Origin: a virus
IMG/VR virus record: IMGVR_UViG_3300029258_005088
Strand: one strand, 5' to 3'
Length of the DNA stretch: 64,000 nt
Shown here: piece by piece, positions 14,509 through 60,417 of the stretch
How the letters are laid out: each line of letters begins with the position of its first letter
Numbering within the stretch: position 1 is the first letter of the stretch
Position numbers and translations under genes: made by a program
Notes under the pieces: model-generated
The model's input: the letters and a program-made list of their open reading frames with translations, nothing else
Databases searched by the model: none
What the model was told of the DNA's origin: nothing

Positions 14509-15459
14509 CTACCTGCCTCCGTATCCGCCGTAATTGTCGAAGCTTCTCAAGGAAGTCCTTCCGAAGGCATTGGACACGTTGATCGAGCGCTTCTTCTGAC
14601 GAACCCATTCCCTGTAGGATTCCAGATATCTGACGGATGCCTTGGAATAGAATGCGGCCTGATCCTTGTCGTCGATGTTCAGGCCGGCCGCGGAATACCG
14701 TAGGCGGTTCCTCTCGGTATGTGTAGCGGCCATGGACAGGAGTTCTCCCACCACGCCGTCGAACCAGTTGTATACGAACGGAAAGTTGCTCGTCGTCATA
14801 ACCGTACTCAACGGAGGCAGGGCTTCGTTCCAATAGTCGATCGGACGGCGAAGTGCCCAGGCTATCTCGGTATCGGTGAACTCCACTCGGTCGAGAAGGA
14901 AGTTGTCTTCCTTGCACTTGTCCCGTATGCCTAGACGCACCTCGGCGATCGTCAGAGTATGATACCTGCGATCGGTGTGCCAGAGATCTTCCTGGATCTC
15001 GACATAGCACCGGAGCTTGGCGATTATGGTGCAGGCATCGGTAGAAAGTGAATACGCGTATTCACTTTCTTCTCCGGACGAGGATTCGTCCTCGGCGGCG
15101 GATTCGTCGGAACTCTCCTCGGAGCTTTCCTCGGAGCTTTCCTCTTCGGGTAGGTCCTCTATGATGAACTCTCCGACGAACAAGCCCGGCTCTCGACTGT
15201 CGTTCTCGTCGAGGAGAACCTTCACGATGCCTTGCTGTGCATCGAGGATCTCCGCTACCTTGGCTATTTTGACGAGCTGAGCGTCGACGCCTTCCTTGGC
15301 TATGAGGCAGACGCGCCTGTCCGTCAGGTCGTAGTGCTGCCCGTGATCGTCTCGTAGCTGCACCTCCTGAGCGCTGCATGCGTTCTGGGCATACTTCAGA
15401 GTCGGCCACTCGTTCGGGCACGTCTCCCTGTCTTCTACGCAAATATCTGGAAAGGGCAT
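14509..15459 (-). CDS. Head-tail adaptor (BppU-like N-domain plus adaptor domain)
   Basis: 316 aa. N-terminal QEVQLRDDHGQHYDLT...GIVKVLL...GLFVGEFII and C-terminal FTDTEIAWALRRPIDYWNEALPP, separated by an acidic Ser-rich linker. Confidence 0.6.
   Translation of the reverse strand: MPFPDICVEDRETCPNEWPTLKYAQNACSAQEVQLRDDHGQHYDLTDRRVCLIAKEGVDAQLVKIAKVAEILDAQQGIVKVLLDENDSREPGLFVGEFIIEDLPEEESSEESSEESSDESAAEDESSSGEESEYAYSLSTDACTIIAKLRCYVEIQEDLWHTDRRYHTLTIAEVRLGIRDKCKEDNFLLDRVEFTDTEIAWALRRPIDYWNEALPPLSTVMTTSNFPFVYNWFDGVVGELLSMAATHTERNRLRYSAAGLNIDDKDQAAFYSKASVRYLESYREWVRQKKRSINVSNAFGRTSLRSFDNYGGYGGR
15043..15070. repeat. 28-bp perfect palindrome containing TGAATACGCGTATTCA (copy 1)
   Basis: AGAAAGTGAATACGCGTATTCACTTTCT, inside the adaptor CDS. 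Confidence 0.95.
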
Positions 15460-15460
15460 A

Positions 15461-16243
15461 TCATGCCTCCGTTTTCTGTAGGGATTTCTCCTGGATCATG
15501 TCTACGAGGGCCTTTGTCTCCGGGCGTTGTTCGAGCCTATCCCTCACGGATTCCCAGCGATCGCCGAGCTCCGTCTTGAGAACTTCCACGGACAACACGA
15601 TCTCTTCCAGAGCGACGTTGTTCATCTCGAGATCGCCCTTGGTCTGCAGGTGTCTACGTTCCATCCTCGTGTGCTTGTACAAGGAATATCCGGCGAACAC
15701 TATAATGGCCGCTCCACCGCATATACATACCGTGATGAACTGCTCGACGTACCACGCACCGAACATCCCTATGCATAGGATGACGCCCCCATATATCAGG
15801 AACTCGTCCCAGATCGAGGGTATGGCCGGGAACTTGAACTTGAGAGCGAACAACAGCAGCCCTATGAACATGCCCGCTCCTCCCACCAGGATCATTATCC
15901 GAAAGGCGTTGAACAGGTTGTTGAGTACCTTCTGCCTCCTCTGGTCCGCTGCTTCGTACTGCTCGAGATTGACTGTCTTGACCTTGACCTCCTTGTACGT
16001 CTCCCCTTCCCTGTCGTACAACACACGGGATACGACGAAGGCCGGTTCCACTCTGTCCTCGATGGGAACGGCGACTACAACCGGTTTGTACTGCGCGGTC
16101 TTCGTTATGCAGAGCGTGTACCAGTCTCTGCTGTAGGTCTGTTCGTAGTAGGTCTCCGAGGTGTAGTCGTTCTTCTTCCCACGCTTGCAGCCAACCATGC
16201 AGAGACAGATCAGCGAAATCGAAATCAACGTATATGGGCGCAT
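15461..16243 (-). CDS. Lipoprotein with three predicted TM helices (possible lysis protein)
   Basis: Start reassigned to ATG 16243 (260 aa). Signal MRPYTLISISLICLCMVG-C (lipobox), about 90-aa beta-rich part, three hydrophobic segments and a C-terminal coiled coil. Confidence 0.6.
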   Translation of the reverse strand: MRPYTLISISLICLCMVGCKRGKKNDYTSETYYEQTYSRDWYTLCITKTAQYKPVVVAVPIEDRVEPAFVVSRVLYDREGETYKEVKVKTVNLEQYEAADQRRQKVLNNLFNAFRIMILVGGAGMFIGLLLFALKFKFPAIPSIWDEFLIYGGVILCIGMFGAWYVEQFITVCICGGAAIIVFAGYSLYKHTRMERRHLQTKGDLEMNNVALEEIVLSVEVLKTELGDRWESVRDRLEQRPETKALVDMIQEKSLQKTEA

Positions 16244-16244
16244 A

Positions 16245-16625
16245 CTAATTCCCCTTGTTCTCGAACGGCTTCCGACCAAACCACCGTACCATGTGATATC
16301 TCCTGAGGCCGGATATCAGGGCTGCGTATCTAAGAGGGCGCCACCAGGCAACCGCCTTCTTTATTGCCATGTTCTGGTCCCGTAGCATGGCCTTGTCCGC
16401 GAACTTCCTGTCTTTCTCGGTGGTTCCGTATTCATACCTCATGTCATGGGCGTAATAGCACAGATTGCAGTCTATGCCCCAGATATCTCTGGGTATGAAC
16501 CGAGCTATCCAGTGCCCCTTCGGGCCGCAGTAATCTATCTCAGGATCGTACTTCTCCCAGTTGTCGGGGACCTCTTCGTAGGGCCATATGTAAGAATCTT
16601 TCATACTTAAATCTACCCTTGTCAC
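16245..16625 (-). CDS. PLA2-like / DUF1353-like small protein
   Basis: YCGP...CYYAHDMRYEYG...ADKAMLRD matches the YCGxG / HDxxY / AD signature. Alternative start at 16604. Confidence 0.55.
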   Translation of the reverse strand: MTRVDLSMKDSYIWPYEEVPDNWEKYDPEIDYCGPKGHWIARFIPRDIWGIDCNLCYYAHDMRYEYGTTEKDRKFADKAMLRDQNMAIKKAVAWWRPLRYAALISGLRRYHMVRWFGRKPFENKGN

Positions 16626-16638
16626 GGGGTTATTTCAA

Positions 16639-17250
16639 TTACTCGGAAGAAGGGACGACCCGATCGTCCACGATGGCGTCGATCTGCTCCTTCGTCGTGC
16701 AGCCGTTTACCTGTGCTTTTAGAGCTCGTCCTTCCTCCAGCATCACGGCCACCTGGCCGAAGCCTTTGTAATACATGTCCAGAAGGTGGGGACCGTCCTG
16801 TATGTAATAGGCTTCGTTGTGGACCGTCATTATCTTCATCGGAAAATCTATGGGGACACCGAACAGCTGACTATCCACCAGGTTGTTTCTTCTTGCATGC
16901 CAGGAGGATTGATCGTTGACGTCTAGATTGAATCTGTAATAAGGGCCTGGATCCGGCGGGACCGGATATAAGACACCTGCCGCTATGATGGCCCGCGTCT
17001 TCATGTCTATTTCGTAATTCTTCTCGTCCTTCAGTTTACGCAGGTCCCATATCGTTTCGTACGCAGATCCGTTCCATCTGTTCCACATAAGCGAATCACT
17101 GGCCCTGCACTGGATATTGTCCGGTGCGTCGTCCCTGCGAGTATCCACGGGAAGTCCGTACTCGTCGACGATATATTGAACGGTGAACTCCTGACTGCTG
17201 GCGGACCAGACATCACCGGTCGCCGATTCTATGTATGCGTATCTGCTCAT
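16639..17250 (-). CDS. DUF4376-like fibre assembly protein
   Basis: Start reassigned to ATG 17250, which overlaps the fibre stop. C-terminal LKDEKNYEIDMKTRAIIAAGV...LKAQVNGCTTKEQIDAIV is typical of fibre chaperones. Confidence 0.65.
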   Translation of the reverse strand: MSRYAYIESATGDVWSASSQEFTVQYIVDEYGLPVDTRRDDAPDNIQCRASDSLMWNRWNGSAYETIWDLRKLKDEKNYEIDMKTRAIIAAGVLYPVPPDPGPYYRFNLDVNDQSSWHARRNNLVDSQLFGVPIDFPMKIMTVHNEAYYIQDGPHLLDMYYKGFGQVAVMLEEGRALKAQVNGCTTKEQIDAIVDDRVVPSSE

Positions 17251-19424
17251 CAATTCCTCCAGAAGGTGCCGGCAAGGGACCATCCTACGATATAAACGTC
17301 GTTGTTATAGGTATCGTCGGCATTTCCGGACGTAGCGTCCCTGATAATGGACCATATGAAAGAATCTCCTGGAATGACGTTCGGAAGGTCGAATTCGTGA
17401 GAAGACTCGTATACCTTGTCCGACGTGCCTGCCACCGACACTATGTCGCTCTTAGGTCCGAGCTCTGTAACGGATCCGTTGAGTATGGTTTCCGCGCTTA
17501 CCTCCGCCATGTACATCTCTATCTCTACGTCTCCCGATGCCGTTGAGATGGGTGCGAACAATAACTGGAACGTTATTGGAAGCGCCGTGTTAAGTCCTTC
17601 CGGTATCCTGAACGTGCCTCCGCTACCGTCCTTTCTTGGATAGTCTCGCGCATTGTTCCTGACATCAAGATGGGTGTTGGTGTTCGCATTCACAGAGTAG
17701 TCTTTTGAAAGGAAACCCGTAATGTCCTCCAGGTTGGACAACGGAATACTGCGAACGGGCTGAGCATCTCCGTGATACTCGATATACCCTTTGCGCTCTA
17801 TCACGCAGGTATCGTCGAAATGCTCTATACGGCCTACGACAGGAGACGTCGTTATGGCTGCCGTTATCCTGTATCGTGCCCAGTACGCATTCTGTCCGTT
17901 CAAGGTTTTCTTAGCCCATCCGGGAGTGTCTCCGAAGTATATGTTCTGATCTCCCGTAAGGGTCAAAGCCTGTTGTCCGTACTGTAGCTTGCCTTGAGTC
18001 GTCATGATATTGAACGCAGACCAGGCAGAGCCATCCCAGTACTCTGATATGACGCCTCCCGTACCTGGGTTTAGAATGGTCGTGACTTCCTGCAGCAACA
18101 AGGAGGTAAATATATGGTCCGTCACTCCTGTGTACACGCAGTTTCCCGCTCCCGTTCCTGCAAACAGAGTTATGCTGGTATCCGGATCGTTGTTGTCGGA
18201 AGTCAGGTCGTTCCAAGTACCGGCCTCGCCGTTTGTGTTCGTGAAAACGAACTGCTCGTATACGGATGAATGCCCGGATCCGACCGACACCCTCGACCCT
18301 ATATAATGGCTTCCGAACGACGTATCTCCTATGAATCTATGGCCTTCTTCCCCCTTCTCGAAAGCGACTATCCCTATGAAAAACCCCGTGGCTCCTCCTA
18401 GTTCTATCTTCTCGAAATTGGCGGATCCTTTGTAGTAACCGGTGACTCCTGAATCCAGTACGGATATATCGTTCGTACAGCTCCTGATACCACAGGCGTT
18501 GCCCTGGAAGCTGGTCGTGGATCCATCTATCTGAAGGGCTAGTGTATTGGCGGTTCCGCTGTACGCCGAGGCAATACACAGGTCACAGCTCTCGATGTCC
18601 AAGCCGGTAGTACAGTAGGCCACGGGAACGGACGACAGCGTTATGTTACCGCCACCTACTACGTGTATTCCTCTGGTTATCGTACTTACGGGAGTTCCGC
18701 TGATGGTAACTGCCTGCAAGGTGGCGTCGACCCCGGTATCCATCTTTATTCCGGTGGACATCGTCGTTCCCGGCGAACGGCTTATGATGACGTCCTGAAG
18801 AATGATGTTCGAACTGGATCCTGCAAGGTGAAGGCCGGTCTCGCAGTCGGCGACTATGCATGACCGTATCAAGGACTGGAAGCCCGAGGACTTTATGCCT
18901 ATTCCTCCGGAACCCGAGCACCCCCTTACCTGGAACCCGTACAACTCTGAATAGGATCCGCACGTCACCAGAGTGTCCGTCGAAGTATTCGGATTTACCT
19001 GTACGGACCCCAGACCTCCCACGGCTACGAGATTGCAGAAATCAGGGACTGTGAATGCGTCCTCGTCGTAAGTGCCTGGATACACGAGTACGGTGGCGGG
19101 GTTAGTGGAGGAAGGTGCGGGACTTAGAGCGGCTGCCTGAGCGCAACCGGTCTTTATGCTGGTAGTGTCTCCTCCGGATACCGCAACTATTATACACCGT
19201 CCCGGAGAGAAGCCTCCTGACCCGGAGGCTATCTTCGTCCAGTCCGTAGTAGTCGCCCCGGTCTTCTTCCACTGATCACCGTTGGATTGGAATACGTAGG
19301 ATCCTACCGGGGCGTCGAAGCCCGTCGAAGAGGGATCATAGGTAGTAGCCCATAGACCTAGGAGATTATCACCCAGGGCTATTCCAAAGCGATACGAACT
19401 TGCCTGGTCTATGGGAGACGCCAT
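17250..19424 (-). CDS. Fibre / spike protein with right-handed beta-helix
   Basis: 724 aa. VLVYPGTYDED followed by pectin-lyase-like parallel beta-helix repeats (IRSCIVADCETGLHL, VAYCTTGLDI). Confidence 0.7.
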   Translation of the reverse strand: MASPIDQASSYRFGIALGDNLLGLWATTYDPSSTGFDAPVGSYVFQSNGDQWKKTGATTTDWTKIASGSGGFSPGRCIIVAVSGGDTTSIKTGCAQAAALSPAPSSTNPATVLVYPGTYDEDAFTVPDFCNLVAVGGLGSVQVNPNTSTDTLVTCGSYSELYGFQVRGCSGSGGIGIKSSGFQSLIRSCIVADCETGLHLAGSSSNIILQDVIISRSPGTTMSTGIKMDTGVDATLQAVTISGTPVSTITRGIHVVGGGNITLSSVPVAYCTTGLDIESCDLCIASAYSGTANTLALQIDGSTTSFQGNACGIRSCTNDISVLDSGVTGYYKGSANFEKIELGGATGFFIGIVAFEKGEEGHRFIGDTSFGSHYIGSRVSVGSGHSSVYEQFVFTNTNGEAGTWNDLTSDNNDPDTSITLFAGTGAGNCVYTGVTDHIFTSLLLQEVTTILNPGTGGVISEYWDGSAWSAFNIMTTQGKLQYGQQALTLTGDQNIYFGDTPGWAKKTLNGQNAYWARYRITAAITTSPVVGRIEHFDDTCVIERKGYIEYHGDAQPVRSIPLSNLEDITGFLSKDYSVNANTNTHLDVRNNARDYPRKDGSGGTFRIPEGLNTALPITFQLLFAPISTASGDVEIEMYMAEVSAETILNGSVTELGPKSDIVSVAGTSDKVYESSHEFDLPNVIPGDSFIWSIIRDATSGNADDTYNNDVYIVGWSLAGTFWRN

Positions 19425-19433
19425 CGTTTACCT

Positions 19434-20945
19434 CTATAGGGCGATCCAGCGTACCGATTTGACGTCAGCGCCACCTGCAGTATCGGAGTTCACCAGTAGA
19501 CGCATGTTTCCTGCGTTGATGTCGACGCTGATGTCGAGATCCAGAGGAGGGGTCGATCTCAGGAACGGCGACTCGTCGACGTCTATGACGGCCGTGCCGT
19601 CATGCATTGCCCGCACGGTAGCGGAGTAACGCTGGGTACTGTCCGTGACCCCTTCTCCGTAGACTACCCAGTGGACGACGTCTGCCTGTGTCAGCGGAAC
19701 GCTATCAAGGACTACGTCCGTCGCACCGACTCCGGTATCCGTCTTCTTGACGCCGCCTATCTCCACCGCAGTCTCCAGATCCTGTAGAGCCTGCTTGATC
19801 GTGCGGTTGTCCTGAATGATCTCACCGGTGAACGTACCGAGATCCTGAGCACCGAGGGACACTCCCGTGAGGGTGACCAGGTCGAGTACGTCTTTGTGGA
19901 GCTTGGAGATGGCTGTTTCGACGGTGTCCGAAGCAGCTGGATAAGCCGCCGCAACCGCCGCGGCATAGCCGCTGCTGAGATTGATGCCGGTGGCCAGCTG
20001 CCAGTCGACGTCGGCGATCTTGATCAGATCGGTACCGTCGTACCAGACGATGGCGGAGTTTTCCCCACCGCTGGGATCAGGTAGGTAGTACGTGGTGATG
20101 AAGGTATCGCCAGTGGCCAGAGGATCTACACCGGCCTGGCGTACCTTGAGCGTTCCGCCATCGTCGTAGACCTCGAAGATCTTGTCCGCACCGCTGGTGT
20201 TCTTGGACAGGAGATAGTCCCCATCCGAGAAGGCACCGATAGGGAGCTTGCCGTCGTCGTCATCCGAGAACGGAAGCAGCGTGGTCAGAGCCGTTCCGTC
20301 CGCCGCCGCGTTCAAGTCGGTATCCTCGGTAGTACCGATCGTCAGCGGGCGCCAGTTCTGGGACATCGCGATGGCATCGGCATTTGTCTTGACCTGCGCA
20401 TCGAGGGCGGAGAGATTGGCGTAAATCGAATTGGCCAGAGCGATGTAGTTCGTCGAAGTCATCTCCGAATCCGCTCCTATGGCGTCGTCGATTGCCGCCA
20501 GCATCGTCATAATGCTGTCCGTGGCCGGCGTGAGCTGGCCCTTCGTACGGGTTTCCGCCGTGAACGTGGCTCCGAGCTTCTGATCGATCTTGCCGATAGC
20601 GAGCTCGAGGTTGTCGTTATTCCCGATCCAGTTGACGGTGCCGCCTGTGGCGGCGTTGTAGTCCGGGGTCTCCGGCCCTGCTCCGCTCTTTCCTATGAAG
20701 GCTCTTATATAGCCTTCCTCGAGAGCGCTGCCACCTCCCGTGGAGAAATCCGTCCATGCCGTGGCCCCGTTAGTATTGATGTACAACGCGCCATTGGTCG
20801 TATCCGATACCAAGGAACCCCTGGCGGCCGTGACAACTCCGTTGGGATTCCCGTCATACAGGAAAATGTCGATTGTCGTGTCGGTTCCGTTCTTGTCCCA
20901 GATTTGGAACCCTTTCACTACTCTTGTCAGATCAGCTACGGCCAT
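19434..20945 (-). CDS. Virion fibre / decoration protein
   Basis: 503 aa, acidic and T/G/D-rich, with coiled segments (LSALDAQVKTNAD) and a C-terminal beta-sandwich-like region. Confidence 0.6.
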   Translation of the reverse strand: MAVADLTRVVKGFQIWDKNGTDTTIDIFLYDGNPNGVVTAARGSLVSDTTNGALYINTNGATAWTDFSTGGGSALEEGYIRAFIGKSGAGPETPDYNAATGGTVNWIGNNDNLELAIGKIDQKLGATFTAETRTKGQLTPATDSIMTMLAAIDDAIGADSEMTSTNYIALANSIYANLSALDAQVKTNADAIAMSQNWRPLTIGTTEDTDLNAAADGTALTTLLPFSDDDDGKLPIGAFSDGDYLLSKNTSGADKIFEVYDDGGTLKVRQAGVDPLATGDTFITTYYLPDPSGGENSAIVWYDGTDLIKIADVDWQLATGINLSSGYAAAVAAAYPAASDTVETAISKLHKDVLDLVTLTGVSLGAQDLGTFTGEIIQDNRTIKQALQDLETAVEIGGVKKTDTGVGATDVVLDSVPLTQADVVHWVVYGEGVTDSTQRYSATVRAMHDGTAVIDVDESPFLRSTPPLDLDISVDINAGNMRLLVNSDTAGGADVKSVRWIAL

Positions 20946-20955
20946 GTCAAACCTC

Positions 20956-21516
20956 CTACAAGTCTATGGCTTTACCTATTACAGTTACCGGAAACGGCTG
21001 GTTATTCGTGAACTGGAGAAGTAGGTCCGTACCTACTATGCTCGTGTCCGACGATACACGCATTCTGTCACCGACCTCCGCTGGCACACAGTGAGTGAAC
21101 GAGCCGGGCGAGCCCGATGTGTGCGTAGCCTGTATTTGCATGACCATTGCGTTATCTGTTAGGGCCTCGGATACGTGAAACATATACCAGGCTCCCAGTT
21201 TTGTTAAATCCAAAATGTCGACTATCTCGGTGTCACCGGAGGCGATGACCACCGGACCCACTATCCGTAGGCCCGGTGACGTACCGCCTGCTTCTATAAG
21301 ATACCAATCGGTACCGTTCCATACAACAAAATCTCCGGCATAGAGCGTACGGCCAGTGACAGGGTCAGTGACCGTTGCCTGAATGGCATAAAACCAGCCG
21401 TTCTGGGCCTCGCCGGGAGCGGGGAAGTCTCCGGGTGTGGAGACATCCCCCTTGTTGATCATGACGTTGAAAAGACCCAGGAGAGCTTCAGATAACTGAG
21501 GTCCTCCATGAGGCAT
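20956..21516 (-). CDS. Virion structural protein (fibre-associated)
   Basis: 186 aa with the GDFVVWNGTDWYLI motif common in fibre proteins. Confidence 0.55.
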   Translation of the reverse strand: MPHGGPQLSEALLGLFNVMINKGDVSTPGDFPAPGEAQNGWFYAIQATVTDPVTGRTLYAGDFVVWNGTDWYLIEAGGTSPGLRIVGPVVIASGDTEIVDILDLTKLGAWYMFHVSEALTDNAMVMQIQATHTSGSPGSFTHCVPAEVGDRMRVSSDTSIVGTDLLLQFTNNQPFPVTVIGKAIDL

Positions 21517-21519
21517 ATG

Positions 21520-21834
21520 TCATCGTCCTTCGTGCCAGTACGGTGTATTGTAAGTGGCTTCTTCGGTAACGGCCCTGATGTTACCCCAGTACATGTTCTC
21601 GTACTCGATCTCATGCCAGCCGCCCGGATAGACGACGATTCCCGTTCCAAGTACCGCCGGCTCCGTTGGATGGAGTCTGAGGAACAGGGGATCCGTGGCA
21701 TCCTGGGGCCACATGATGATCAAGTACCTACGGTTCTTGTACTCGGGAACCAGTATGATGGACCCATCAGTGGTGACCACCTGGCCCGGCGCATTCGTCG
21801 GACCTCCGTTATGTAATGAGGGATGAATAGGCAT
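21520..21834 (-). CDS. Small beta-rich virion protein
   Basis: 104 aa in the coupled structural block. Confidence 0.5.
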   Translation of the reverse strand: MPIHPSLHNGGPTNAPGQVVTTDGSIILVPEYKNRRYLIIMWPQDATDPLFLRLHPTEPAVLGTGIVVYPGGWHEIEYENMYWGNIRAVTEEATYNTPYWHEGR

Positions 21835-21852
21835 GGGCCTTACTCCTCGGGG

Positions 21853-22632
21853 TTACTTCTTTGCGGTTTTCCTCGGAGCCTTCCGTGAAGTGGTCTTCCG
21901 CTTGGCCGGAGCCTTCTTCGGAGCCTCTTCCTTCTTCTCCTCGGGCGGTTCGTCTGCAGAGGGGTCTGCCGGTGCTTCGGGCTCTGCCGGATCGGTTCCG
22001 TTCTCGTTGGCAGGAGCTTCGTCGGAAGCCTCGGGCTCTGCCGGTGCTTCGGGCTCTGCCGCGGCTTTCTGGGCCGCTTCGTCTTCGGCTTTCTTTCCTT
22101 CGCCCAGATCAGTCCCCTCCGGGAAGATCTCCAGGGTCTTCGGCTCTCCGTTCTCGTCGGTGGCTCCGGCCTTTTCCATGGCCTCGGCATCCGCCAAGGT
22201 CTCTTCATGTCCGGGAAGGGTCTTCATCGCGGGCTTGCTGCCTTCGATGGTTCCCTGCTGCCAACGCTCGTCCGGCTTTCCTGCAGCCCCTTCGACTGGC
22301 TTCTGATCGGTCAACTCGACCTTACCCTCGTCCATTCCCTCGGGAACGGGAGCGGGAGCGGGCTGGGTCTTTACGGGCTCCGAGGACTTCTCTGCCTTGG
22401 TCGGCTTTCTGCATGGTATGTTGGTTACCAGCTCGAGTTCGACCCTGTCGTTGAGGAAGTCGTACTCGCAACTGGATACGAAACGACGGTTCTGAACGGC
22501 GGTCGGGTACGCACCTTCCACGATGACTTCTTCGTCAGCCTGCAGGTACTGGCCTCTCGGCGCGATCCAGCGGAACAACATTCCTTGACCGCTGGTGTTC
22601 TTGATACGGGTTTTGAGCATTACTTGTTCCAT
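21853..22632 (-). CDS. Protein with acidic Pro/Ala/Glu repeats and a basic histone-like tail
   Basis: Start at 22632 (AAGGAG upstream) or 22620. EPEAPA repeats (exact 25-nt repeat at 21965-21989 and 22037-22061); ends KKAPAKRKTTSRKAPRKTAKK. Confidence 0.6.
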   Translation of the reverse strand: MEQVMLKTRIKNTSGQGMLFRWIAPRGQYLQADEEVIVEGAYPTAVQNRRFVSSCEYDFLNDRVELELVTNIPCRKPTKAEKSSEPVKTQPAPAPVPEGMDEGKVELTDQKPVEGAAGKPDERWQQGTIEGSKPAMKTLPGHEETLADAEAMEKAGATDENGEPKTLEIFPEGTDLGEGKKAEDEAAQKAAAEPEAPAEPEASDEAPANENGTDPAEPEAPADPSADEPPEEKKEEAPKKAPAKRKTTSRKAPRKTAKK

Positions 22633-22673
22633 GATGGACGGGCTCTCCTTGCTTCCAAGCTTTTGTTTCAATG

Positions 22674-22707
22674 AAAAAAGGGGACCGGGGCGGGTGCCCT
22701 GGCCCCC
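22674..22707 (-). terminator. Rho-independent terminator downstream of the capsid gene
   Basis: GGGGGCCAGGGC-ACCC-GCCCCGGTCCCC followed by TTTTTT. Confidence 0.8.
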
Positions 22708-22735
22708 TTGTGTACAGGGTATGTGACCCTACTCC

Positions 22736-23716
22736 TTACGGAGCGATGTCACTCCACTCAGTCACGGGGTTGATGAACTCCGCACGAGCTACGCCGCCCG
22801 AGTTTTTCAGCGTGGCGCCGATCATCTCGTAGCAGAACATCTCGAACAGGAAGTTCTCGTGTTTGGTGGAGCAGGTAACGTCTTCGAACGTGTAGAAGTC
22901 ACCCAACTGATCCGGAGCGGTGAAGTAGTAAATCACGTTTTCGGGAACCAGGTCCGTCTTGATCGTGATGAACCACCGCAGACCCATGATCTGGCGTTCG
23001 GCGAATCCGTTCTTGAACATTTCCTCGGCGAGATCACCACCAATTTCGATCCGGTCCAGAGCGACGATGTCCCAGATCGTGATGTTGTTGATCAAGCCAA
23101 CCGCGGCGTTCAGGTGCCGGTTGGTCGAAGGCAGGGCCTTCATACCGTGACTCAGGCTGTCGCGGGACATCGGTCCTACGGTACAGTTGCCCTGAGCGGC
23201 GACTTCGGCGACACGGGGGTTCGCAGCGGCCGAAGCCGTGTTCTGCGGACCTACCACGGTGTTGACGACGGCCATGTACTTCCGGTCTTCTTCGGCCAGG
23301 ATGTCTTTCAACATCAGGTCGTTGAAGATCTGACGGATGTCCATGTCATAGGTCAACAGGTTGGCAACATCGGCGATGAAGCGGTGGGACATGATGCGGT
23401 CAAACATCACGCGGTACCGCGGAGCGTCGATGTAGTGGTTCATCGGAACGTTCCCGAAGGGGACGCTGTAGGCCGGAGGCGTGTCCGGCTCAACGTCCTT
23501 GACGATCACGGGCTTGACCGTGTCGACCTGACGGTCGAGGTCTGCCGGGGTGACCGGGATCGGGGGTTGGATGCGACGGGTGAAACCATCTTCACGCGCC
23601 CTTAGACGCAGATAGTCGTTTACGCCGCTGGCGGCCTTTTGCATGACGTACGGATCGTGGGATTTGAGTCCGTTGATCACGTTCTCATTGCGGGAGCGAA
23701 CTTCGTGGTTCAACAT
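22736..23716 (-). CDS. Major capsid protein (HK97 / encapsulin-like fold)
   Basis: 326 aa with strong RBS (AAGGAG) and a downstream terminator; follows protease, scaffold and decoration genes. Pattern FTRRIQPP...RYRVMFDRIMSHRF...DMDIRQIFNDLMLKDILAEEDRKYM. Confidence 0.85.
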   Translation of the reverse strand: MLNHEVRSRNENVINGLKSHDPYVMQKAASGVNDYLRLRAREDGFTRRIQPPIPVTPADLDRQVDTVKPVIVKDVEPDTPPAYSVPFGNVPMNHYIDAPRYRVMFDRIMSHRFIADVANLLTYDMDIRQIFNDLMLKDILAEEDRKYMAVVNTVVGPQNTASAAANPRVAEVAAQGNCTVGPMSRDSLSHGMKALPSTNRHLNAAVGLINNITIWDIVALDRIEIGGDLAEEMFKNGFAERQIMGLRWFITIKTDLVPENVIYYFTAPDQLGDFYTFEDVTCSTKHENFLFEMFCYEMIGATLKNSGGVARAEFINPVTEWSDIAP

Positions 23717-23763
23717 TTTTATTTTCTCCTTGTGAAGTTCAGTTCTGGGTTACTCCGGCTACC

Positions 23764-24408
23764 TTACGGCGTTGCGGCACGAGCTGGCAGATAGACAGGC
23801 CAGAAGCGGATCACACGTTGGTCGTAGACCTCGGTGCTGATGCCCTGGGAGTCATCCACGTCCACCTTGGAAACGATACCGACGACCTGCTCTTCGAGAG
23901 CAAGTTCGCCACCGGCCTGGATGGTGCCGACGTCTACCCAACCAGCGGGGTAGGATCCTGCGGCTTCGCCACCAGTTACGGTGTAGGCGACCAGGGGATC
24001 GTTTTCGTTGTAGGTGGATGCCTGGTTGAACTCGGTGGTGACGAGTTCGAAACCGCCGGTGGCGACGTAGCAGCCGACGTGACGACGTTTCACGGTCGTG
24101 TTGTCGGGAGCCAGAGTCTGGCCAGCGATGTTGCCGGCGTCACGACGGTACAGAGGTCCGTCGCCTGCCTGCCAGTCTTCGCCGCCAGCGACGTCGAAGT
24201 CGTAGGAAGCGTTGATGGCCCACATCGGCATGGCGTGCAAGGATGCCATACCTGCTTGGAGCAGGCCGTCAGTCCCGAGGGACATCAGGGAACCGCGATG
24301 GTTGTTCTCACTCGAGTTGAGATACTCGGTGAACTGCAGGTCGTGCATGCCGTCGTAACCGCTGACAGGGTCCAACAGATGGTCATAGTTTTGTCCGGGT
24401 GTCAACAT
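23764..24408 (-). CDS. Capsid decoration / cement protein
   Basis: 214 aa, beta-rich, immediately upstream of the capsid gene. Confidence 0.6.
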   Translation of the reverse strand: MLTPGQNYDHLLDPVSGYDGMHDLQFTEYLNSSENNHRGSLMSLGTDGLLQAGMASLHAMPMWAINASYDFDVAGGEDWQAGDGPLYRRDAGNIAGQTLAPDNTTVKRRHVGCYVATGGFELVTTEFNQASTYNENDPLVAYTVTGGEAAGSYPAGWVDVGTIQAGGELALEEQVVGIVSKVDVDDSQGISTEVYDQRVIRFWPVYLPARAATP

Positions 24409-24449
24409 TGTTAGTTGTCTCCGTGTTGATGGTTATTGACTTCCTCTCT

Positions 24450-24890
24450 CTACGCCTGAGCGTTGAGATTGTCGAACGTCGCCTCGAACGATTTGTCCGA
24501 TGCCCGCTTCTCCGCAGTGGCGGTTGGCGCAGCACTTGTGGGCCTGTCGACTGGTTTTCCTAGACTTGGAACCGATTGAGGCGGAGCGATCCGCTGCGCT
24601 GCCAACTTATCGACGAAGTCCAGCAGAGCTGTGGCGGGATTCTCTTTCACCGAAGTGATAGCCTGTTCACGGCTCGATTCCTTGAGGAAGCCGGCCTGGA
24701 CGAGATGATCCACCACTTCCGTGATCCGATTATCTTCCACGACCCCTTCCGAAGCCTGTTTCTGGCTGCTTGCGGCAGCCTCTTTCAACTGAGCGTTCTC
24801 AGTGCGAAGTTCCGTAATGAGCTCATCGGTTTCCTTGATGTAGGAAGCCATTTTCTGAGACAGTTCCGGAGGTACTTGTTGATTCGACAT
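24450..24890 (-). CDS. Small scaffold / prohead protein
   Basis: 146 aa with a coiled coil (LITELRTENAQLKEAAA) and KxA motifs (QKMAS, QKQAS, EKRAS). Confidence 0.6.
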   Translation of the reverse strand: MSNQQVPPELSQKMASYIKETDELITELRTENAQLKEAAASSQKQASEGVVEDNRITEVVDHLVQAGFLKESSREQAITSVKENPATALLDFVDKLAAQRIAPPQSVPSLGKPVDRPTSAAPTATAEKRASDKSFEATFDNLNAQA

Positions 24891-24912
24891 TGTATGTCTC
24901 CTTCTTGGTCCG

Positions 24913-26154
24913 TTACCGGCTCAGGATCTCGCGAACCTTGCTGGTCCAGTCATCCGAAGCTTCCTTCTCGGCAGCTTCTTCAGCACCCTCTTCGGCCGCT
25001 TCTTCGACTTCGGGAGCTTCCGCTTCCATAGCCTCTTCAGCACCCATTTCAGCGCCCATCTCGCCACCTTCGCCGGTGATTTCGGTCAGGGCCTGTGCGA
25101 GCTCTTCCGGGGGTACGCCGGCTTCCTGCAACGCCTGGACGTCTTCCATGGCCTGCTGCAGTTCTTCCGGGGTGACGCCCGCTTCGTCAAGAGCGGCGGC
25201 CACTGCATCCAGAGGATCGCCCTCGGGCATTTCGCCCATGGCTTCTTCCGGTGCCGGACCTCCGTCCATCGGGACTTCGGGCATTCCTTCTTCCATCGGC
25301 ATTCCGCCTTCGGCCATTACTTCGTCGGGGACGACGGCCTCGGGGAATTCCATGGCGACTTTGTCCAGAAGACCTTCGACGCCACCGACCTTCTCCAAGA
25401 TATTGGGGTCGATATCGGCGTGACTGACTTCGAACTCGTCCTGAGCTCTCTTGATGAGGCCTGCACGATAGCCTTCGAAATATTCTTGAGCTGCGTATGC
25501 GGCAGTCTTGTCGATCTGCATCATGACCTGCTCTTCTACGGAAGCAGTCTTCTCGCCGCCTTCGGGAGAACCGTCGAGATCATTTGGAATACCTGCGGGA
25601 GGATTCACCATCTTGTCCTGACTGTTCTCGCCACCGGGCTGGGGCTTGACTGCGGAACCACCGGCTTCCCCTGCGGGAGCGGCGCCGTTACCGTTGTCGG
25701 AAGCTTCTTTCGAGACACCTGCCAAAATGGAAAGAATGGCGTTGGCCTTCTTGTCGATGCTTGCGACCTTCTGTTCCTGAGTGATCTCCTGGGAGACCTC
25801 TTTGGGGAACTGGGTAGTGGGCTCGTCGACCATCAGGGTTTCGGTCCCTTGGTCGTCGGTGGGTTTCTTTTCGTCCGCTTCCGAGTTCGGCTTGGCCGTT
25901 ACTGCGGGTTGCGGCAGACCTTCAGCCGCCAGCGTGGACTGCTCCTTGCCCAGATTGGTCTGAGCCGTGGAAGCTGCTTGGGGTTTGGCCTGCTCTTCGG
26001 GATTGGCAGCCTTGGTGTCCTTGAAGGACGTCGAGCTGTCGTCAGCGGCTGTCTTCATCGAGGCTTCCTTCTCCGCTTGGCTACGGATGGGGTCTAGGAA
26101 GGTGCTGATGAGCTGCATGCTGTCCTTGATGCTTGCCTGCTTTTCGTGAGACAT
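24913..26154 (-). CDS. Prohead scaffold / core protein
   Basis: 413 aa, acidic low-complexity, with at least eight KxA motifs (EKQAS, EKEAS, MKTAA, QKVAS, SKEAS, EKTAS, DKTAA, EKEAS); directly after the protease gene. Confidence 0.7.
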   Translation of the reverse strand: MSHEKQASIKDSMQLISTFLDPIRSQAEKEASMKTAADDSSTSFKDTKAANPEEQAKPQAASTAQTNLGKEQSTLAAEGLPQPAVTAKPNSEADEKKPTDDQGTETLMVDEPTTQFPKEVSQEITQEQKVASIDKKANAILSILAGVSKEASDNGNGAAPAGEAGGSAVKPQPGGENSQDKMVNPPAGIPNDLDGSPEGGEKTASVEEQVMMQIDKTAAYAAQEYFEGYRAGLIKRAQDEFEVSHADIDPNILEKVGGVEGLLDKVAMEFPEAVVPDEVMAEGGMPMEEGMPEVPMDGGPAPEEAMGEMPEGDPLDAVAAALDEAGVTPEELQQAMEDVQALQEAGVPPEELAQALTEITGEGGEMGAEMGAEEAMEAEAPEVEEAAEEGAEEAAEKEASDDWTSKVREILSR

Positions 26155-26174
26155 AGCGTTCTCCTGGTTAATTC

Positions 26175-27626
26175 TCAGGTTGTGACCTGGTTGTGAACGA
26201 TTACGCGATGTGCATACTTGTCCACCCCGAGGCCAGCCATGAACGCTACCTGATATTTGGCGTATTCTTTCGCCAGGTACCGAGACTCAGCTCTCTGTGT
26301 CGGTGCTACAAGCAGACTCGCCCTCTTGCTTAGACCAGGGCCGCCGTTGATCGAGATCTTGATGATCCTTTTCTTTACCGGCCCATCTGCGGTTGAAAAG
26401 CCGTCGACCAATTTGCCGACCGTCTCTTCCAACCCCGTCCAGTGTCGGGGAGATAGTGGAACGTACGAAGAATCTGAGAAAACGTCGTTGTCTCCACTGC
26501 CTGCTAACTCTGAAAATACTCTTTTTACGCAGCAAGGCAAGTCTTTTGCATTATTTATATCCGATTTAGGCATCTTCAATATCACGCTGCAGAAAGCCTT
26601 CGGAGGCAGAAGAACCTCCTGTTTCTGTAACGCGGCGAGGACGTCTCCGACCGGGTATTGCTTCAATTCTTCAAGGGTTTCGTCGTCGAGATGGTTGTCC
26701 TGGAATGCGTCAGCCAGATCTGATTCTCCCGGGCCCATGCCCTTTGCATGGATCTCCTTCTCGATCTCCGCCGCCTTGGCGAACGCCGCGGCATGTTTCT
26801 GCTCCAGCTTGTCTCCGATCTCTCCGATCATGGAGAGAGGAAGCCAGATGGCATTGGGATCCTCCGGTGCCGGCAGGACTCCATCGGAGGCTACCTTGGA
26901 CAGGGTATATGCCGCACGGAATGCAGGGACACGAACTTCGGAGATGTCGTGGAGGTGCGGCTGGTCGTTTATGGCGGCGGCCTGGTGGCCTTCCTTGGAC
27001 AGCGACATCTTCTGATACTTGAGGTGATCGCAGTAACCCTTCTTGGTCTTCGCCTGGTTTCCGCAGATCGTGCAGATATCGTACGGAACTCCGCAACCCA
27101 TGGACCAGGTAACGTGGTCTCCGTTGGCGAGCTTCTGCAGGGAAGGTCCCCAGAGATCGTTCGGGAGCTTGACCACGAGCTCGCCTCGATGCATCACGGG
27201 ATTGTACCATTCCGCATGGATGCTTCCAAGCTCCGGGCCGCCCTTCTTCGAGTTGTTGTGCTCGCGATAAACGGCGCCATACTTCATGAAGGTTCTGTGG
27301 AACTTCTCCAGACCTCCGTCCAGCTCTATGCGACAGGGCTTGCCCGTCATGTGGTGTTCCGGAACCTCGTACGAAGCGGTCTTCTCGTTGAACCAGTCGG
27401 CGTTGTTGTTGGCGCCGTAGTATTCGCCTGCCCCCATCGTGATGAGATGGACGAAGCTATGACCCGGCTCCGGTGTGACGTCGATGTGCATTACCTGGTC
27501 GGATCCCGCTACCTTCTGAAGGAACTGAGCCTGTCCGAAGTCGATTCCCTTGCTATGCACCTTGAGCAAATGCGCAGTGGGTATATCCCGGAACCAGGAC
27601 GATGGAATGAATCGCTTGTGTATCAT
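26175..27626 (-). CDS. Prohead maturation protease with Zn-finger insert
   Basis: 483 aa. YREH, TWSMGC (candidate catalytic Ser) and LHDISEVRVPAFRAA (cf. HK97-type L-x-EIS-x-V-x-x-PA), with a CTIC...YCDH insert. Confidence 0.75.
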   Translation of the reverse strand: MIHKRFIPSSWFRDIPTAHLLKVHSKGIDFGQAQFLQKVAGSDQVMHIDVTPEPGHSFVHLITMGAGEYYGANNNADWFNEKTASYEVPEHHMTGKPCRIELDGGLEKFHRTFMKYGAVYREHNNSKKGGPELGSIHAEWYNPVMHRGELVVKLPNDLWGPSLQKLANGDHVTWSMGCGVPYDICTICGNQAKTKKGYCDHLKYQKMSLSKEGHQAAAINDQPHLHDISEVRVPAFRAAYTLSKVASDGVLPAPEDPNAIWLPLSMIGEIGDKLEQKHAAAFAKAAEIEKEIHAKGMGPGESDLADAFQDNHLDDETLEELKQYPVGDVLAALQKQEVLLPPKAFCSVILKMPKSDINNAKDLPCCVKRVFSELAGSGDNDVFSDSSYVPLSPRHWTGLEETVGKLVDGFSTADGPVKKRIIKISINGGPGLSKRASLLVAPTQRAESRYLAKEYAKYQVAFMAGLGVDKYAHRVIVHNQVTT

Positions 27627-27635
27627 AACGGTCTC

Positions 27636-29225: not shown

Positions 29226-29242
29226 CTCACGTTCTCCACGTA

Positions 29243-30172
29243 TTAGTTATCAATGGCCTTGTTCATCATTTTCTCTTCCAGTGCGGTATCGGGCTGGAAC
29301 TTCGGATTGAGCGTAGGCTCCGAAATACCGCTTCTGCTGGCTATCTTCTTCTCGAGGTCCGGGTCCAGGAACGCTTCTTCAAGCGTGGTGAGGATCTGCT
29401 GTGCAGTTCCCACGGCCGATCCGGATCCATCGCCATCTCCCAGACTCTTCCTTGCCTGCTCCATGTTCCACAGCCTGTCGGCCTGATCGAAAAGGGCCAT
29501 GGCCGGTTGGCTGAAACTGGCTCGAAGACTCGCAGTCTGGTGATATTCATTATAATAGCGTCTTTTAGTGCTAATTTCTCGCATAAATTTGACATAATCA
29601 TCGCTTAAGTCGGCGCCGCCCCTGAATTTTATCAGATCGTTTATGGCGTCGAAACCTCTGACGTAGGCGAAAGCCTTCCACGTAAAGTCGCAATCCGTGA
29701 CGGTATGCGTCGTATGAAGAGCGGTCGCCAGAATGGTGCAGAATATGGCGGCGGCGTTGTCTTTGTAATGCTCTATGTCGAAGTAGACCTTGCGAAACAT
29801 CTCGATGGTTGCGGCACCGTACAACGGATTGAAGGTATTGGCTATGTCCTTGTCGGAGGCGTCCGTCATGAGCATGGCCTCTATGAGCCACTTGTATCCG
29901 CCGGTGGGCCTGGAGTCGTGGAACAGCATGAAGGCTTCGTGCATTACCGGGTACTTTATCTGAAGTCTGCCGTTGTAGTGAACCAGGTCTTCCCGGCTCT
30001 CGTAGAAACGACATGCCTCTAGAAGCCACTCGTCCTTGGCGGCCATGCTTCTTCGAATGACCTCCTCCGGCAAGATGCCTTCCACGAGGCAGCGAAGCGC
30101 GATGTTCCATCTCCAGCAGGGTGCTCGGAGATAGTTCGGCTTCGCCGTCTCTGACTTCAGGATGTTGCTCAT
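29243..30172 (-). CDS. Hypothetical protein (head module)
   Basis: 309-aa coupled ORF; no family recognised. Confidence 0.6.
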   Translation of the reverse strand: MSNILKSETAKPNYLRAPCWRWNIALRCLVEGILPEEVIRRSMAAKDEWLLEACRFYESREDLVHYNGRLQIKYPVMHEAFMLFHDSRPTGGYKWLIEAMLMTDASDKDIANTFNPLYGAATIEMFRKVYFDIEHYKDNAAAIFCTILATALHTTHTVTDCDFTWKAFAYVRGFDAINDLIKFRGGADLSDDYVKFMREISTKRRYYNEYHQTASLRASFSQPAMALFDQADRLWNMEQARKSLGDGDGSGSAVGTAQQILTTLEEAFLDPDLEKKIASRSGISEPTLNPKFQPDTALEEKMMNKAIDN

Positions 30173-34211: not shown

Positions 34212-34212
34212 G

Positions 34213-40280: not shown

Positions 40281-40288
40281 GCCTTCCC
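40206..40288. repeat. 83-bp direct repeat, copy 2
   Basis: Matches 39148-39230 at 77 of 83 positions. Confidence 0.95.
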
Positions 40289-46795: not shown

Positions 46796-46798
46796 GCT

Positions 46799-51205: not shown

Positions 51206-51208
51206 TCA

Positions 51209-52955: not shown

Positions 52956-53277
52956 TTGGGTTTTCCTTTTCGGCCAAAGCCTGCTGTCCTTCGATCTCTT
53001 CCTGTTTCCTGCGGCGCTCGAGTTCCGCGATGAACTCTTCGAGCTCGGCCGCCTCGAGGGCCTTCTGGACGGCTTCTTCATCCATCGGAGACGGACTCGT
53101 GATCTTCGAGTGAGTCAGGCCGGCACCCGCTCCGAGAAGGATGGGAGCGACCAGAAAGTAAGGAGCCAGGCTCTCTGCGACTTCCTTGCCCGTCCTTACC
53201 GTTTCGGCACCCCCTCTGAGGAGAGATGGGTATGCTTCCTTGTGCATGTATCCGTCTAGATATGCCTGTTTGTTCAT
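52933..53277 (-). CDS. Leader-tagged small TM protein
   Basis: MNKQAYLDGYMHKEA leader; YFLVAPILLGAGAGL helix. Confidence 0.7.
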   Translation of the reverse strand: MNKQAYLDGYMHKEAYPSLLRGGAETVRTGKEVAESLAPYFLVAPILLGAGAGLTHSKITSPSPMDEEAVQKALEAAELEEFIAELERRRKQEEIEGQQALAEKENPSARTLHI

Positions 53278-57174: not shown

Positions 57175-57183
57175 GGCTTTCTC

Positions 57184-59061: not shown

Positions 59062-59065
59062 AGGC

Positions 59066-60058
59066 TTAGCTCCTTACCATTACTTGGACACCGGTCTTGT
59101 AGAACGGAAGTTCGAATTCGACGCCAACAAAATATACGTCATACTCCTCTTTGTTACAACTCAGTTTGAAAGTCTCCTGCGAAGACGGGGGAGTGAATAT
59201 GTTGGAATCCTCTTCATAAATCAATATAACGAAATCATCGGTTATGTGCACGTATTTGTACATGCCGCGGGAAGTCCCGAACGATCCAGACAGTTTGACG
59301 CGTGTCGGCGGTACGTCGGAGGGGTCGTATCCGAGATCGTCGTCCGTATCCGCCGGCTCCGGTATGGATGGCCTAGCGGCTTCCTTTTCCTTGAACTGTT
59401 CCCACATCTGCATCATCTGACCGAACTGCTGCATATCCATGGCGCTGGGTCCTTGTGTCTGTGGAGGCGCCGCCTGTTGTACCGGAGACTGTGCGGCTTG
59501 CTGCGGGCTGTTCATCTGTTCCAGGATGTCTCCCAACTCGGCTTCCGCCTGAGCCTGTGCCTCGACGGCCGCTCTGGCCTGTTCCTTGTACTTCATGGCC
59601 TGTTCCTGTACGGCGAGATCCGCCGCTTCCTTCTCCTCTGCTGTACCTTCTCCGAGAAGATCGGGAAACGGGATCGCATCGTCTGCGAAGGCACTGGCCG
59701 GTGCCGAAGGCCTTTCGGTGGGTGGGGGTGGTGGTGCCATGGGCTGGGCTCCTCTTTTTTTCTTTACTGCGTCTCCAAGCCAGGTAGGTGTGAAGGGAAC
59801 TTCCTGAAGGCGTCCGTCGATAAGCTTCGTCTCGGTACCCATCACGATCTTGCCGAACGGGTTTCCGGATCCCTTGATTCCTCCGTTGGGAGAGGGTACC
59901 GGAACTAGCGTTCCTATGACGTCTCCCTGGTGATGGTTGAATCGATATGCCGCCGGGTCCTCGGCATCCATTATGGCGACCGCTTTGTGGGTGTCGTGCT
60001 TCAACATGCCGTTAGGCAGTTCGTTGGGAGCCGTCGTGAAGATCTGTTCACTGCTCAT
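59066..60058 (-). CDS. Hypothetical protein
   Basis: 330 aa; two globular ends joined by a Pro/Gln/Ala-rich linker. Confidence 0.6.
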   Translation of the reverse strand: MSSEQIFTTAPNELPNGMLKHDTHKAVAIMDAEDPAAYRFNHHQGDVIGTLVPVPSPNGGIKGSGNPFGKIVMGTETKLIDGRLQEVPFTPTWLGDAVKKKRGAQPMAPPPPPTERPSAPASAFADDAIPFPDLLGEGTAEEKEAADLAVQEQAMKYKEQARAAVEAQAQAEAELGDILEQMNSPQQAAQSPVQQAAPPQTQGPSAMDMQQFGQMMQMWEQFKEKEAARPSIPEPADTDDDLGYDPSDVPPTRVKLSGSFGTSRGMYKYVHITDDFVILIYEEDSNIFTPPSSQETFKLSCNKEEYDVYFVGVEFELPFYKTGVQVMVRS

Positions 60059-60389
60059 CGGGTTCCTCCAAGCTGGTAGTCTGTGCTGCTACCTTCTGTT
60101 TCAACGCGGCGACCTCTTGCTCCTTTTCCGACAAGCCCTGCTGGAGTTCTTCCTCGGTGTACGCCTTGGGCGGGGGTACGGGCTTGAGGTAAGCGGCCAT
60201 TGCGAGTGCCTTGTCCTTGTAGAGATGCTGCAAGATGGCGGCCAGTACTGGGCGGGTGACTGGCTGCATGCTTTCGAGATTGCCTTCGCCGTCGAACAGA
60301 TAATGATACCTTCCGACGATTACCGACGCTCCGTCCGGACGCTTGTAGCAGATCGGATCTCCGGTCCACATGATTTTTGTTTCGGACAT
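60048..60389 (-). CDS. Small hypothetical protein
   Basis: ATG 60389 (ORF track uses TTG 60395); C-terminal coiled coil. Confidence 0.55.
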   Translation of the reverse strand: MSETKIMWTGDPICYKRPDGASVIVGRYHYLFDGEGNLESMQPVTRPVLAAILQHLYKDKALAMAAYLKPVPPPKAYTEEELQQGLSEKEQEVAALKQKVAAQTTSLEEPDEQ

Positions 60390-60397
60390 AATCAAAT

Positions 60398-60417
60398 ACT
60401 GAATACGCGTATTCAGT
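60398..60417. repeat. 20-bp perfect palindrome containing TGAATACGCGTATTCA (copy 3)
   Basis: ACTGAATACGCGTATTCAGT, overlapping the stop codon of the desulfurase-like gene. Confidence 0.95.

Follow-up and report, generated by a model that had tools for sequence, protein, structure and literature searches.

Repetitive extragenic palindromes (REP) and bacterial interspersed mosaic elements (BIME) are palindromes of 20-40 nt that lie after stop codons and between convergent genes, where they stabilize mRNA 3' ends or terminate transcription weakly and are bound by proteins. REPs number in the tens to hundreds, are species-specific and extragenic, and are linked to a REP-associated tyrosine transposase (RAYT). 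The parS, Noc-binding (NBS) and N15 centromere sites are dispersed, near-perfect palindromes of 14-16 bp, some of them intragenic. In Cluster A mycobacteriophages, stoperators are asymmetric sites of 13-14 bp that occur 20-30 or more times per ~50 kb and are bound by a monomeric two-domain repressor; they lie in short intergenic gaps or over stop or start codons, and the bound repressor halts the elongating polymerase (PMC9283540, PMC6550527). The extended start-associated sequences (ESAS) of Cluster K have 17-bp arms and spacers of 4-13 bp, accompany a separate 13-bp start-associated sequence, and are present in the non-structural half of the genome only (PMC3203893). The promoter early stem-loop (PeSL) cassettes of T4-type phages, an early promoter plus a terminator stem-loop, are abundant in hyperplastic regions (PMC2839356, PMC4122927). 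Here, we analyzed a stretch of 64,000 nt (the window) from the IMG/VR virus record IMGVR_UViG_3300029258_005088, along which a palindromic element of ~24 nt, AAAS-TGAATA-N(2-4)-TATTCA, recurs at the boundaries of genes and protein modules.

The window corresponds to positions 32,011-96,010 of a 201,176-bp metagenomic contig (ENA ERZ27256770 k141_1722295; JGI Ga0310068_1000036) from an uncultured jumbo phage with a one-directional gene arrangement (minus strand). It holds ~55 tightly packed genes, all on the minus strand, and only ~1-2% of it is intergenic. Its genes include a fused β/β'-N RNA polymerase subunit, a separate β'-C subunit, and polyvalent proteins with SET, GNAT, InPase, DUF5661 and rubrerythrin domains. 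The search was extended to a tiled stretch of 121 kb (record positions 3,559-124,737; window-equivalent -28451 to 92727). Pfam annotation covered five tiles (-28,451 to 11,587 and 30,277 to 92,727), and 11,588-30,276 was spot-checked only.

The element fits none of the compared systems as a member and belongs with the dispersed regulatory repeats of phage genomes. The placement of REPs, extragenic and often after stop codons or between convergent genes, is seen for four of the six phage copies and for the copies in a metagenome-assembled genome (MAG) of Lentisphaeria, but the other two phage copies lie inside genes. Unlike REPs, the element has four copies in that MAG (4.8 Mb), where no RAYT was found, and its arms do not differ between phyla. 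As with parS, NBS and N15 sites, the palindromes are dispersed, ~14-16 bp long and in some cases inside genes, but no ParB-family gene was seen in the annotated tiles, the match to parS is poor (6/16), the spacing varies, and there is a tie to gene boundaries. Like stoperators, it is a short fixed sequence repeated along a phage genome, in gaps or over stop or start codons, and in one orientation to transcription. It differs from them in being an inverted repeat, in having fewer copies (five exact and one variant in 121 kb) and in occurring also in bacterial genomes. With ESAS it shares an imperfect inverted repeat, a variable short spacer, a position immediately ahead of some gene starts, and retention at orthologous genes; however, ESAS are not reported inside genes or in host genomes (PMC3203893), and our element was found in both settings. 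PeSL cassettes, too, are regulatory repeats that mark gene boundaries and fall on breakpoints of module shuffling (PMC2839356, PMC4122927), whereas the element here has no visible promoter and its positions are stable. Its unusual features are the in-frame lodging in protein linkers, the position kept over deep divergence, and the identical element in bacterial genomes. Dispersed fixed-sequence repeats are one of the few handles on the expression of the ~200 co-directional genes of very large phages. Being small, exact, positionally conserved and shared with bacterial genomes, this element is directly testable, and it shows a nucleic-acid signal lodged in protein linkers where the genome has almost no non-coding space.

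Copies of the palindrome, their placement and their conservation

A search of the window found the 16-mer TGAATACGCGTATTCA exactly at 15049-15064, 40733-40748 and 60400-60415, and no copies at 1-2 mismatches. We refer to these copies by their first positions as c1 (15049), c2 (40733) and c3 (60400). On average, a dinucleotide-preserving shuffle contained 0.01 copies, and in none of 100 shuffles were there as many as three. Other short palindromes in the window were close to chance (11 seen vs. 6.6 expected). The palindrome extends perfectly to 28 bp at 15043-15070 and to 20 bp at 60398-60417. In the tiled 121 kb, the 16-mer is present in five exact copies, at window-equivalent positions -20377, 15049, 40733, 60400 and 83199; a 14-nt variant (TGAATGCGTATTCA on the coding strand) lies at 89014, and no copies were found at 1-3 mismatches. 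The spacing of the dispersed palindromes is 6-35 kb. A covariance model built from all instances detected no further or diverged member in 224 kb of the phage and its relatives, and the only other repeat family in the tiled 121 kb is the ribozyme-like repeat of one operon.

All phage copies carry RAAAS immediately upstream on the coding strand and have the same orientation relative to transcription; the consensus of the minus-strand flanks is AAAS...SWWT. The arms (GAA...TTC plus neighbors) are invariant, and the center, of 4 or 2 nt, differs between copies in both sequence and length. Centers read in DNA are CGCG, CGCA and CATG; CACG and CGTG are deduced from the peptides EYTYS and EHVCS. An assembly artifact was ruled out, since the same sequence is found in independent ENA, JGI and Logan assemblies, two of which are identical across 21.5 kb. 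The runs in which the phage genome occurs are sediment and seawater metagenomes, with no RNA run among them. Scanning IMG/VR with the 16-mer returned four unrelated single matches, which is chance level. The JGI metagenomes gave at least 120 single matches, none of them phage-related among the matches listed. A sequence-only reading of the window had claimed the three exact copies, both extensions, the shared minus-strand flanks, and a placement of two copies as EYAYS in linkers and of the third over a stop codon; all of this was confirmed, and the genome proved to hold two further exact copies and the variant. We conclude that the element is a real signal read by some protein.

The copies of the window and the genes around them are as follows.

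c1, 15043-15070, minus strand: core 15049-15064 in a perfect 28-bp palindrome; in-frame S-EYAYS-L at the end of an acidic Ser/Glu linker
Open reading frame carrying c1, 14509-15459, minus strand: conserved 316-aa structural-type protein with an N-terminal domain, the acidic linker and a conserved C-terminal domain
c2, 40733-40748, minus strand: in-frame EYAYS between the DUF5661 and rubrerythrin-like domains of a polyvalent protein
GGAGG and in-frame ATG, 40715-40732, minus strand: ATG 15 nt after c2, then a leader-like peptide (M..EKRAAL.KVL.ET.H..K.A)
Polyvalent protein InPase-DUF5661-[c2]-rubrerythrin, 40277-41953, minus strand: 536 aa in public collections (40277-41887)
c3, 60398-60417, minus strand: core 60400-60415 in a perfect 20-bp palindrome; intergenic
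Class-V aminotransferase, 60413-61483, minus strand: last gene of a block of glycosyl- and methyl-transferases; stop codon within c3
113-aa gene, 60048-60389, minus strand: start 10 nt past c3

Three copies occupy stop-to-start gaps, two lie in linkers and are translated as EYAYS, and the variant lies at the head of the ribozyme operon, flanked by two canonical intrinsic terminators. The three intergenic copies begin 0-8 nt past the upstream stop codon and end 10-24 nt ahead of the next ATG; the genes that follow encode a 1326-aa LamG protein and proteins of 113 and 140 aa. At c3, the first three bases are the TGA stop codon of the aminotransferase gene, and the next ATG (60389-60387) is 10 nt on; a Shine-Dalgarno sequence ahead of the 113-aa gene was absent in all four orthologous junctions. 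No gene start is near c1, where the linker separates two domains of a protein with ~1000 relatives among uncultured phage proteins. The leader peptide after c2 resembles the GY..K.A N-terminal leaders of neighboring genes, and the GGAGG-ATG there is probably an internal or former gene start. Because only 1-2% of the window is intergenic, the association with boundaries is far from random. It may partly reflect where a fixed word is tolerated.

The 12-mer AACCAAGGAGAT, which precedes the start codon following the copy labeled c4 (L135:9530-9553), is the ribosome-site leader that ends the ribozyme-like repeats (L135:4120-4142 and 4655-4679). The head of the operon (L135:3625-3849) is an intergenic region of 226 nt that contains, besides the variant palindrome, two intrinsic terminators and another GC-rich hairpin. 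The sequence AGCTAYNNCTTGAAAAY follows the terminator at this operon head and also the terminator downstream of the operon (L135:8234-8260).

In relatives with 61-81% protein identity, the element is kept at the same three places as c1, c2 and c3. The c2 site of relative L007 (~80% protein identity) reads TGAATACGCATATTCA, with one synonymous change (CGCG to CGCA). L008 and L009 (~69%) have GGAATACGCGTATTCA, in which the first T is G, followed by the same GTATTGGAG...ATG; both L007 and L008 retain the GGAG and the ATG after c2. In L008, the element and leader stand after InPase and before DUF5661, that is, at another domain junction than in the window. At the c3 junction, L138 (81%) has TGAATACATGTGTTCA, and L137 (75%) and L139/L140 (61%) have a 14-bp palindrome, TGAATACGTATTCA. 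In all orthologous c3 junctions, GTATT follows the palindrome and an ATG comes ~10 nt later. The order of aminotransferase identities makes L139 the outgroup and L137 the next branch, so a single 2-nt indel explains the difference between the 14- and 16-nt forms. By these sequences, both forms have been maintained at c3 for a long time. The c1 site, assessed at the protein level, is an island within a hypervariable Ser/Glu linker that is kept in six orthologs (62-81% identity) as S/T-EYAYS in three, then as EHAYS, EYTYS and EHVCS; more distant orthologs have no EYAYS-type island. Since the element is kept at three independent places, it is under long-term selection as nucleic acid. On this sequence evidence, the selection is on DNA or RNA rather than on the peptide.

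The polyvalent protein of L008 (L008:10001-12487) is rearranged relative to that at 40277-41953 of the window. It has an extra N-terminal region of ~300 aa, an extra domain (also in P0004) between the element and DUF5661, and a second leader-like sequence, GYMHKKA, ahead of the rubrerythrin domain.

The element in bacterial genomes

Prokaryotic genomes, one per species, were scanned with AAAS plus the core as the query. The scan returned 10 loci vs. ~2 expected by chance. Four of the 10 are in the Lentisphaeria MAG CB21_323.87, which is incomplete (4.8 Mb); each is a perfect 30-bp palindrome, TGAAAAGTGAATACGCGTATTCACTTTTCA, and together they lie on three contigs. The contigs carry bacterial genes (a GH42-like hydrolase, an enolase-superfamily enzyme, a LacI-family regulator and a Big_9 protein) and have no protein or other DNA in common with the phage. 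The 30-mer agrees with the phage copies and their flanks at 24/24 positions for c1, 28/30 for c2 and -20377, and 27/29 for 83199. Convergent genes flank three of the four Lentisphaeria copies, and these copies fold into stems of 13-15 bp. Farther out, the flanks of the four copies form a mosaic in which left and right sides are shared in differing combinations. None of the other genomes searched (15 from the MAG's order and a sample of 401 from the phylum) had more than one copy, and the 30-mer was not found in GenBank phages. Neither RAYT (PF01797, Y1 transposase) nor ParB_N nor canonical parS was detected in the MAG. A separate, near-perfect palindrome of 42 bp (GGAGAGAAAGAAGAAAGG...CCTTTCTTCTTTCTCTCC) is located 50 nt upstream of one copy (L158:7355-7396; MAG contig C51 17355-17396).

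Two other MAGs carry clusters of the element. In an Acidobacteriota MAG (JBKPTH010000039.1; L143:1719-1960), three copies exactly 113 bp apart lie in an intergenic region of ~700 bp adjoining an HMG-CoA reductase gene, and the center of the third copy is changed symmetrically from CGCG to GGCC. A tandem-repeat test of this 113-bp array was negative; the units between the copies are without detectable repetition. In a Thermoanaerobaculia MAG (Acidobacteriota), three copies within 280 bp have constant arms and the centers CCAT, CGGC and CGCG. When the phage and bacterial copies were aligned, the common part was only AAAS-TGAATA-N4-TATTCA. The Lentisphaeria link points to a host within the Planctomycetes-Verrucomicrobia-Chlamydiae (PVC) superphylum for this uncultured jumbo-phage lineage, as a lead from sequence and not a proof.

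Possible readings of the element

For an element that is real, selected at the nucleic-acid level, conserved in position, associated with boundaries and common to the Lentisphaeria MAG, our preferred, still tentative, reading is a protein-bound punctuation site at module boundaries, acting as a roadblock or an operator on duplex DNA. We infer the duplex as the form that is read, a dimeric reader and an effect on transcription. The ~24-nt cis-acting element would be recognized sequence-specifically by a protein, and the phage would set it where gene blocks and protein modules meet along its long one-way gene train. A dimeric DNA-binding protein would occupy the double-stranded site. This protein would probably be host-type or common to the host, because the same site is present in bacterial genomes. 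Once bound, it would gate the passage of RNA polymerase or local initiation into the next block, in a manner comparable to the stoperators of mycobacteriophages. Where intergenic space is lacking, the site would be put in a tolerant linker and translated as EYAYS. Duplex DNA is favored because the arm sequence is conserved without covariation across paralogs, relatives and phyla, because most hairpins are weak, and because the symmetric change from CGCG to GGCC preserves a dyad that would be dispensable in a hairpin loop. It is also favored because the bacterial copies cluster with a helical-repeat-like spacing and because a roadblock works from intragenic as well as from intergenic sites.

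We determined how well the element folds. In a stem model, 85% of the cells are paired, and the conserved GUAUU and AAAAC flanks pair with each other except for a single A.A mismatch. Directly outside the core, seven copies have a C-G pair and one has G-C. Sense-strand G.U exceeds A.C by 11 to 1; the independent events behind these pairing and G.U counts are few, however, and the left flanks are rich in purines. Hairpin energies are mostly weak (-4 to -7 kcal/mol) and no better than those of shuffled sequences (insignificant z-scores); strong hairpins form only at c1 (-17.1) and at the variant (-10.4). Variants of pair 5/12 are U.G (L138), a C.A deduced from EHAYS and a C-G deduced from EHVCS (the DNA would read TGAACACGTGTGTTCA), and they give no clear verdict for or against pairing. 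Among paralogs, the arms show no covariation, indicating that the sequence, and not merely the structure, is read. Rfam covariance models gave no gathering-level match in the window, L135 or L136, with only sub-threshold noise near the variant copy. An intrinsic terminator was rejected, given that the core stem has G-C in one of six pairs and no copy passes a terminator scan. The true terminators of the phage are canonical and GC-rich, unlike the AU-rich element; because these are used elsewhere, the element is not the phage's ordinary terminator. A promoter was rejected as well, since inspection of the copies revealed no sigma-70-like or extracytoplasmic function (ECF)-like arrangement at sensible spacings.

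A candidate for the binding protein was sought among the genes. PHROGs and Pfam yielded almost nothing on the neighboring genes, with no helix-turn-helix (HTH), ParB, nuclease or recombinase beside any copy. In the five annotated tiles, neither ParB_N (PF02195) nor a recombinase was among the Pfam hits. The only DNA-binding gene seen there is sigma-factor-like and lies just left of the window; it encodes 235 aa with Sigma70_r3 and an r4-type HTH (PHROG 351; L132:12317-13024, window-equivalent ~-1436 to -729). The element bears some resemblance to LacI/Cra-type, ArsR/SmtB-type and Rex operators and to N15 telomere sites, none of which presumably fits in spacing.

Several observations weigh against the duplex-DNA roadblock or operator, and most of them fit a stem-loop in RNA or single-stranded DNA, which we regard as possible and as a close rival, and which was not among the candidates of the sequence-only reading. 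Such a stem-loop, with a stem of 5-6 bp (longer in some copies) and a loop of 4 nt, would be REP-like punctuation between cistrons. It would be read by a host-type RNA-binding protein or nuclease and would protect the upstream 3' end, mark processing or tune the translation of flanking genes. The half-site spacing varies. At the c3 junction, two relatives carry functional-looking 14-bp versions with a 2-nt center. The c2 site is of the 16-type in a relative from the same sample, which probably belongs to the same genome, and the phage's own genome carries the 14-nt variant. Such variation should be incompatible with a rigid dimer on duplex DNA but not with a stem-loop, as a 4-nt loop is always possible however the center changes in sequence and length. 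The excess of G.U over A.C on the sense strand points the same way, as do single U.G wobbles at the c3 ortholog of L138 and in the variant. The stem is also extended by flank pairs that differ in their letters from copy to copy (c1, c3 and L008), including the pairing of GUAUU with AAAAC. Three phage copies are at most 8 nt from a stop codon. The slot between stop codon and ribosome site is the one used by the self-cleaving ribozyme-like repeats of the neighboring operon, and c4 has their 12-nt leader. The Lentisphaeria hairpins of 13-15 bp between convergent genes are a terminator- or REP-like setting, not that of a promoter; no promoter-like sequence adjoins the phage copies, and the annotated tiles and neighboring genes supplied no candidate binding protein. 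Against a stem-loop, the hairpins are mostly no stabler than shuffled sequence, the core lacks covariation, and one and the same arm sequence recurs across phyla in non-homologous contexts, as RNA structures seldom do. The loop would contain the symmetric change from CGCG to GGCC, ribosomes would melt the two translated copies, pair 5/12 shows no clear pairing preference, and the Y1/RAYT transposase was not found in the Lentisphaeria MAG. Alternatively, though this is doubtful, the phage copies would be perfect versions of a site that a host (Lentisphaeria-type) protein uses at convergent gene ends, either to recruit this host factor as a protein-dependent boundary or terminator for the phage's 200-kb one-way transcription or as a decoy that titrates the factor upon genome replication. 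If this host-factor reading is true, the element is a previously undescribed cross-phylum boundary signal common to bacteria and their jumbo phages, and it offers a sequence-based host assignment for an uncultured phage.

The remaining explanations have less in their favor. A site for genome organization, segregation or packaging (parS-, NBS- or matS-like, or N15 centromere-like), at which a protein condenses, positions or partitions the 201-kb genome, is improbable. Exact 16-bp palindromes dispersed at 6-35 kb, tolerated inside genes in linkers only and stable in position across relatives, would suit it; sites of this kind need no tie to promoters, and the boundary location would merely be where a word of 16-24 bp is tolerated in a ~98% coding genome. 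The sequence-only reading had proposed this parS/NBS-type format among its candidates, but the proposal was not supported. The site agrees with the 16-bp parS consensus TGTTNCACGTGAAACA at 6/16 positions, ParB_N is missing from the Pfam hits of the annotated tiles as from the Lentisphaeria MAG, and canonical parS within 2 mismatches did not exceed the control level in that MAG. In addition, the geometry of the dyad is not fixed, as 16-bp and 14-bp versions occur at functional-looking sites, which departs from parS; the AAAS flank is conserved on one side, always upstream on the coding strand, and the tight stop-to-start placement suggests a role in expression. To a similarly low degree, we consider a recombination or mobility site, either the boundary of a short, PeSL-like mobile or recombinogenic cassette or a miniature inverted repeat, which would shuffle genes or modules and move between phage and host. 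The different domain junction in L008, the mosaic flanks of the four Lentisphaeria copies and the presence of the element in a phage and in bacteria of different phyla are consistent with mobility. This is opposed by the stable positions at c1, the gene of c2 and c3 over deep divergence, by conservation that ends beyond ~24 nt, and by the lack of target-site duplications; no transposase, integrase or RAYT gene was seen near a copy. Selection of EYAYS as a peptide (for example, a protease site), with the DNA identity a by-product or coincidence, is very improbable. Two copies do encode EYAYS and orthologs keep the island, but four of the six copies are non-coding, c3 is in another frame, synonymous positions are kept, and the same DNA lies in bacterial intergenic regions. 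The peptide-level explanation is thus contradicted by the intergenic copies. The earlier view that selection acts on DNA rather than protein therefore stands, borne out by the intergenic and out-of-frame copies, the orthologous places and the island in a hypervariable linker, with DNA or RNA as its object.

Other features of the phage genome

No close relative was found among GenBank phages; the RNA polymerase is ~29% identical to that of Salmonella phage Arash and of Vibrio phages. A protein-based search of IMG/VR gave a single distant locus (48% RNA polymerase identity, GC content 42%) without the motif. The fused RNA polymerase gene of the relative L008 (SRR26786785; L008:759-7265) encodes 2168 aa vs. 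1467 aa in the window and has a faint LAGLIDADG match; it probably carries an intein or a homing-endonuclease insertion.

The tiled 121 kb contains no GCGCGC vs. ~57 expected by base composition, and CGCG is at 45% of its expected count. GGATCC is 3.5-fold in excess (122 vs. 35). The depletion and the excess suggest restriction avoidance or a target of DNA modification.

A strong canonical intrinsic terminator (-22.8 kcal/mol, T6) occupies 22672-22735 of the window, the entire gap of 64 nt that follows the gene at 22736-23716, and the next gene begins directly past it. This terminator probably acts as an attenuator and determines how much of an abundant structural protein is made relative to the downstream products.

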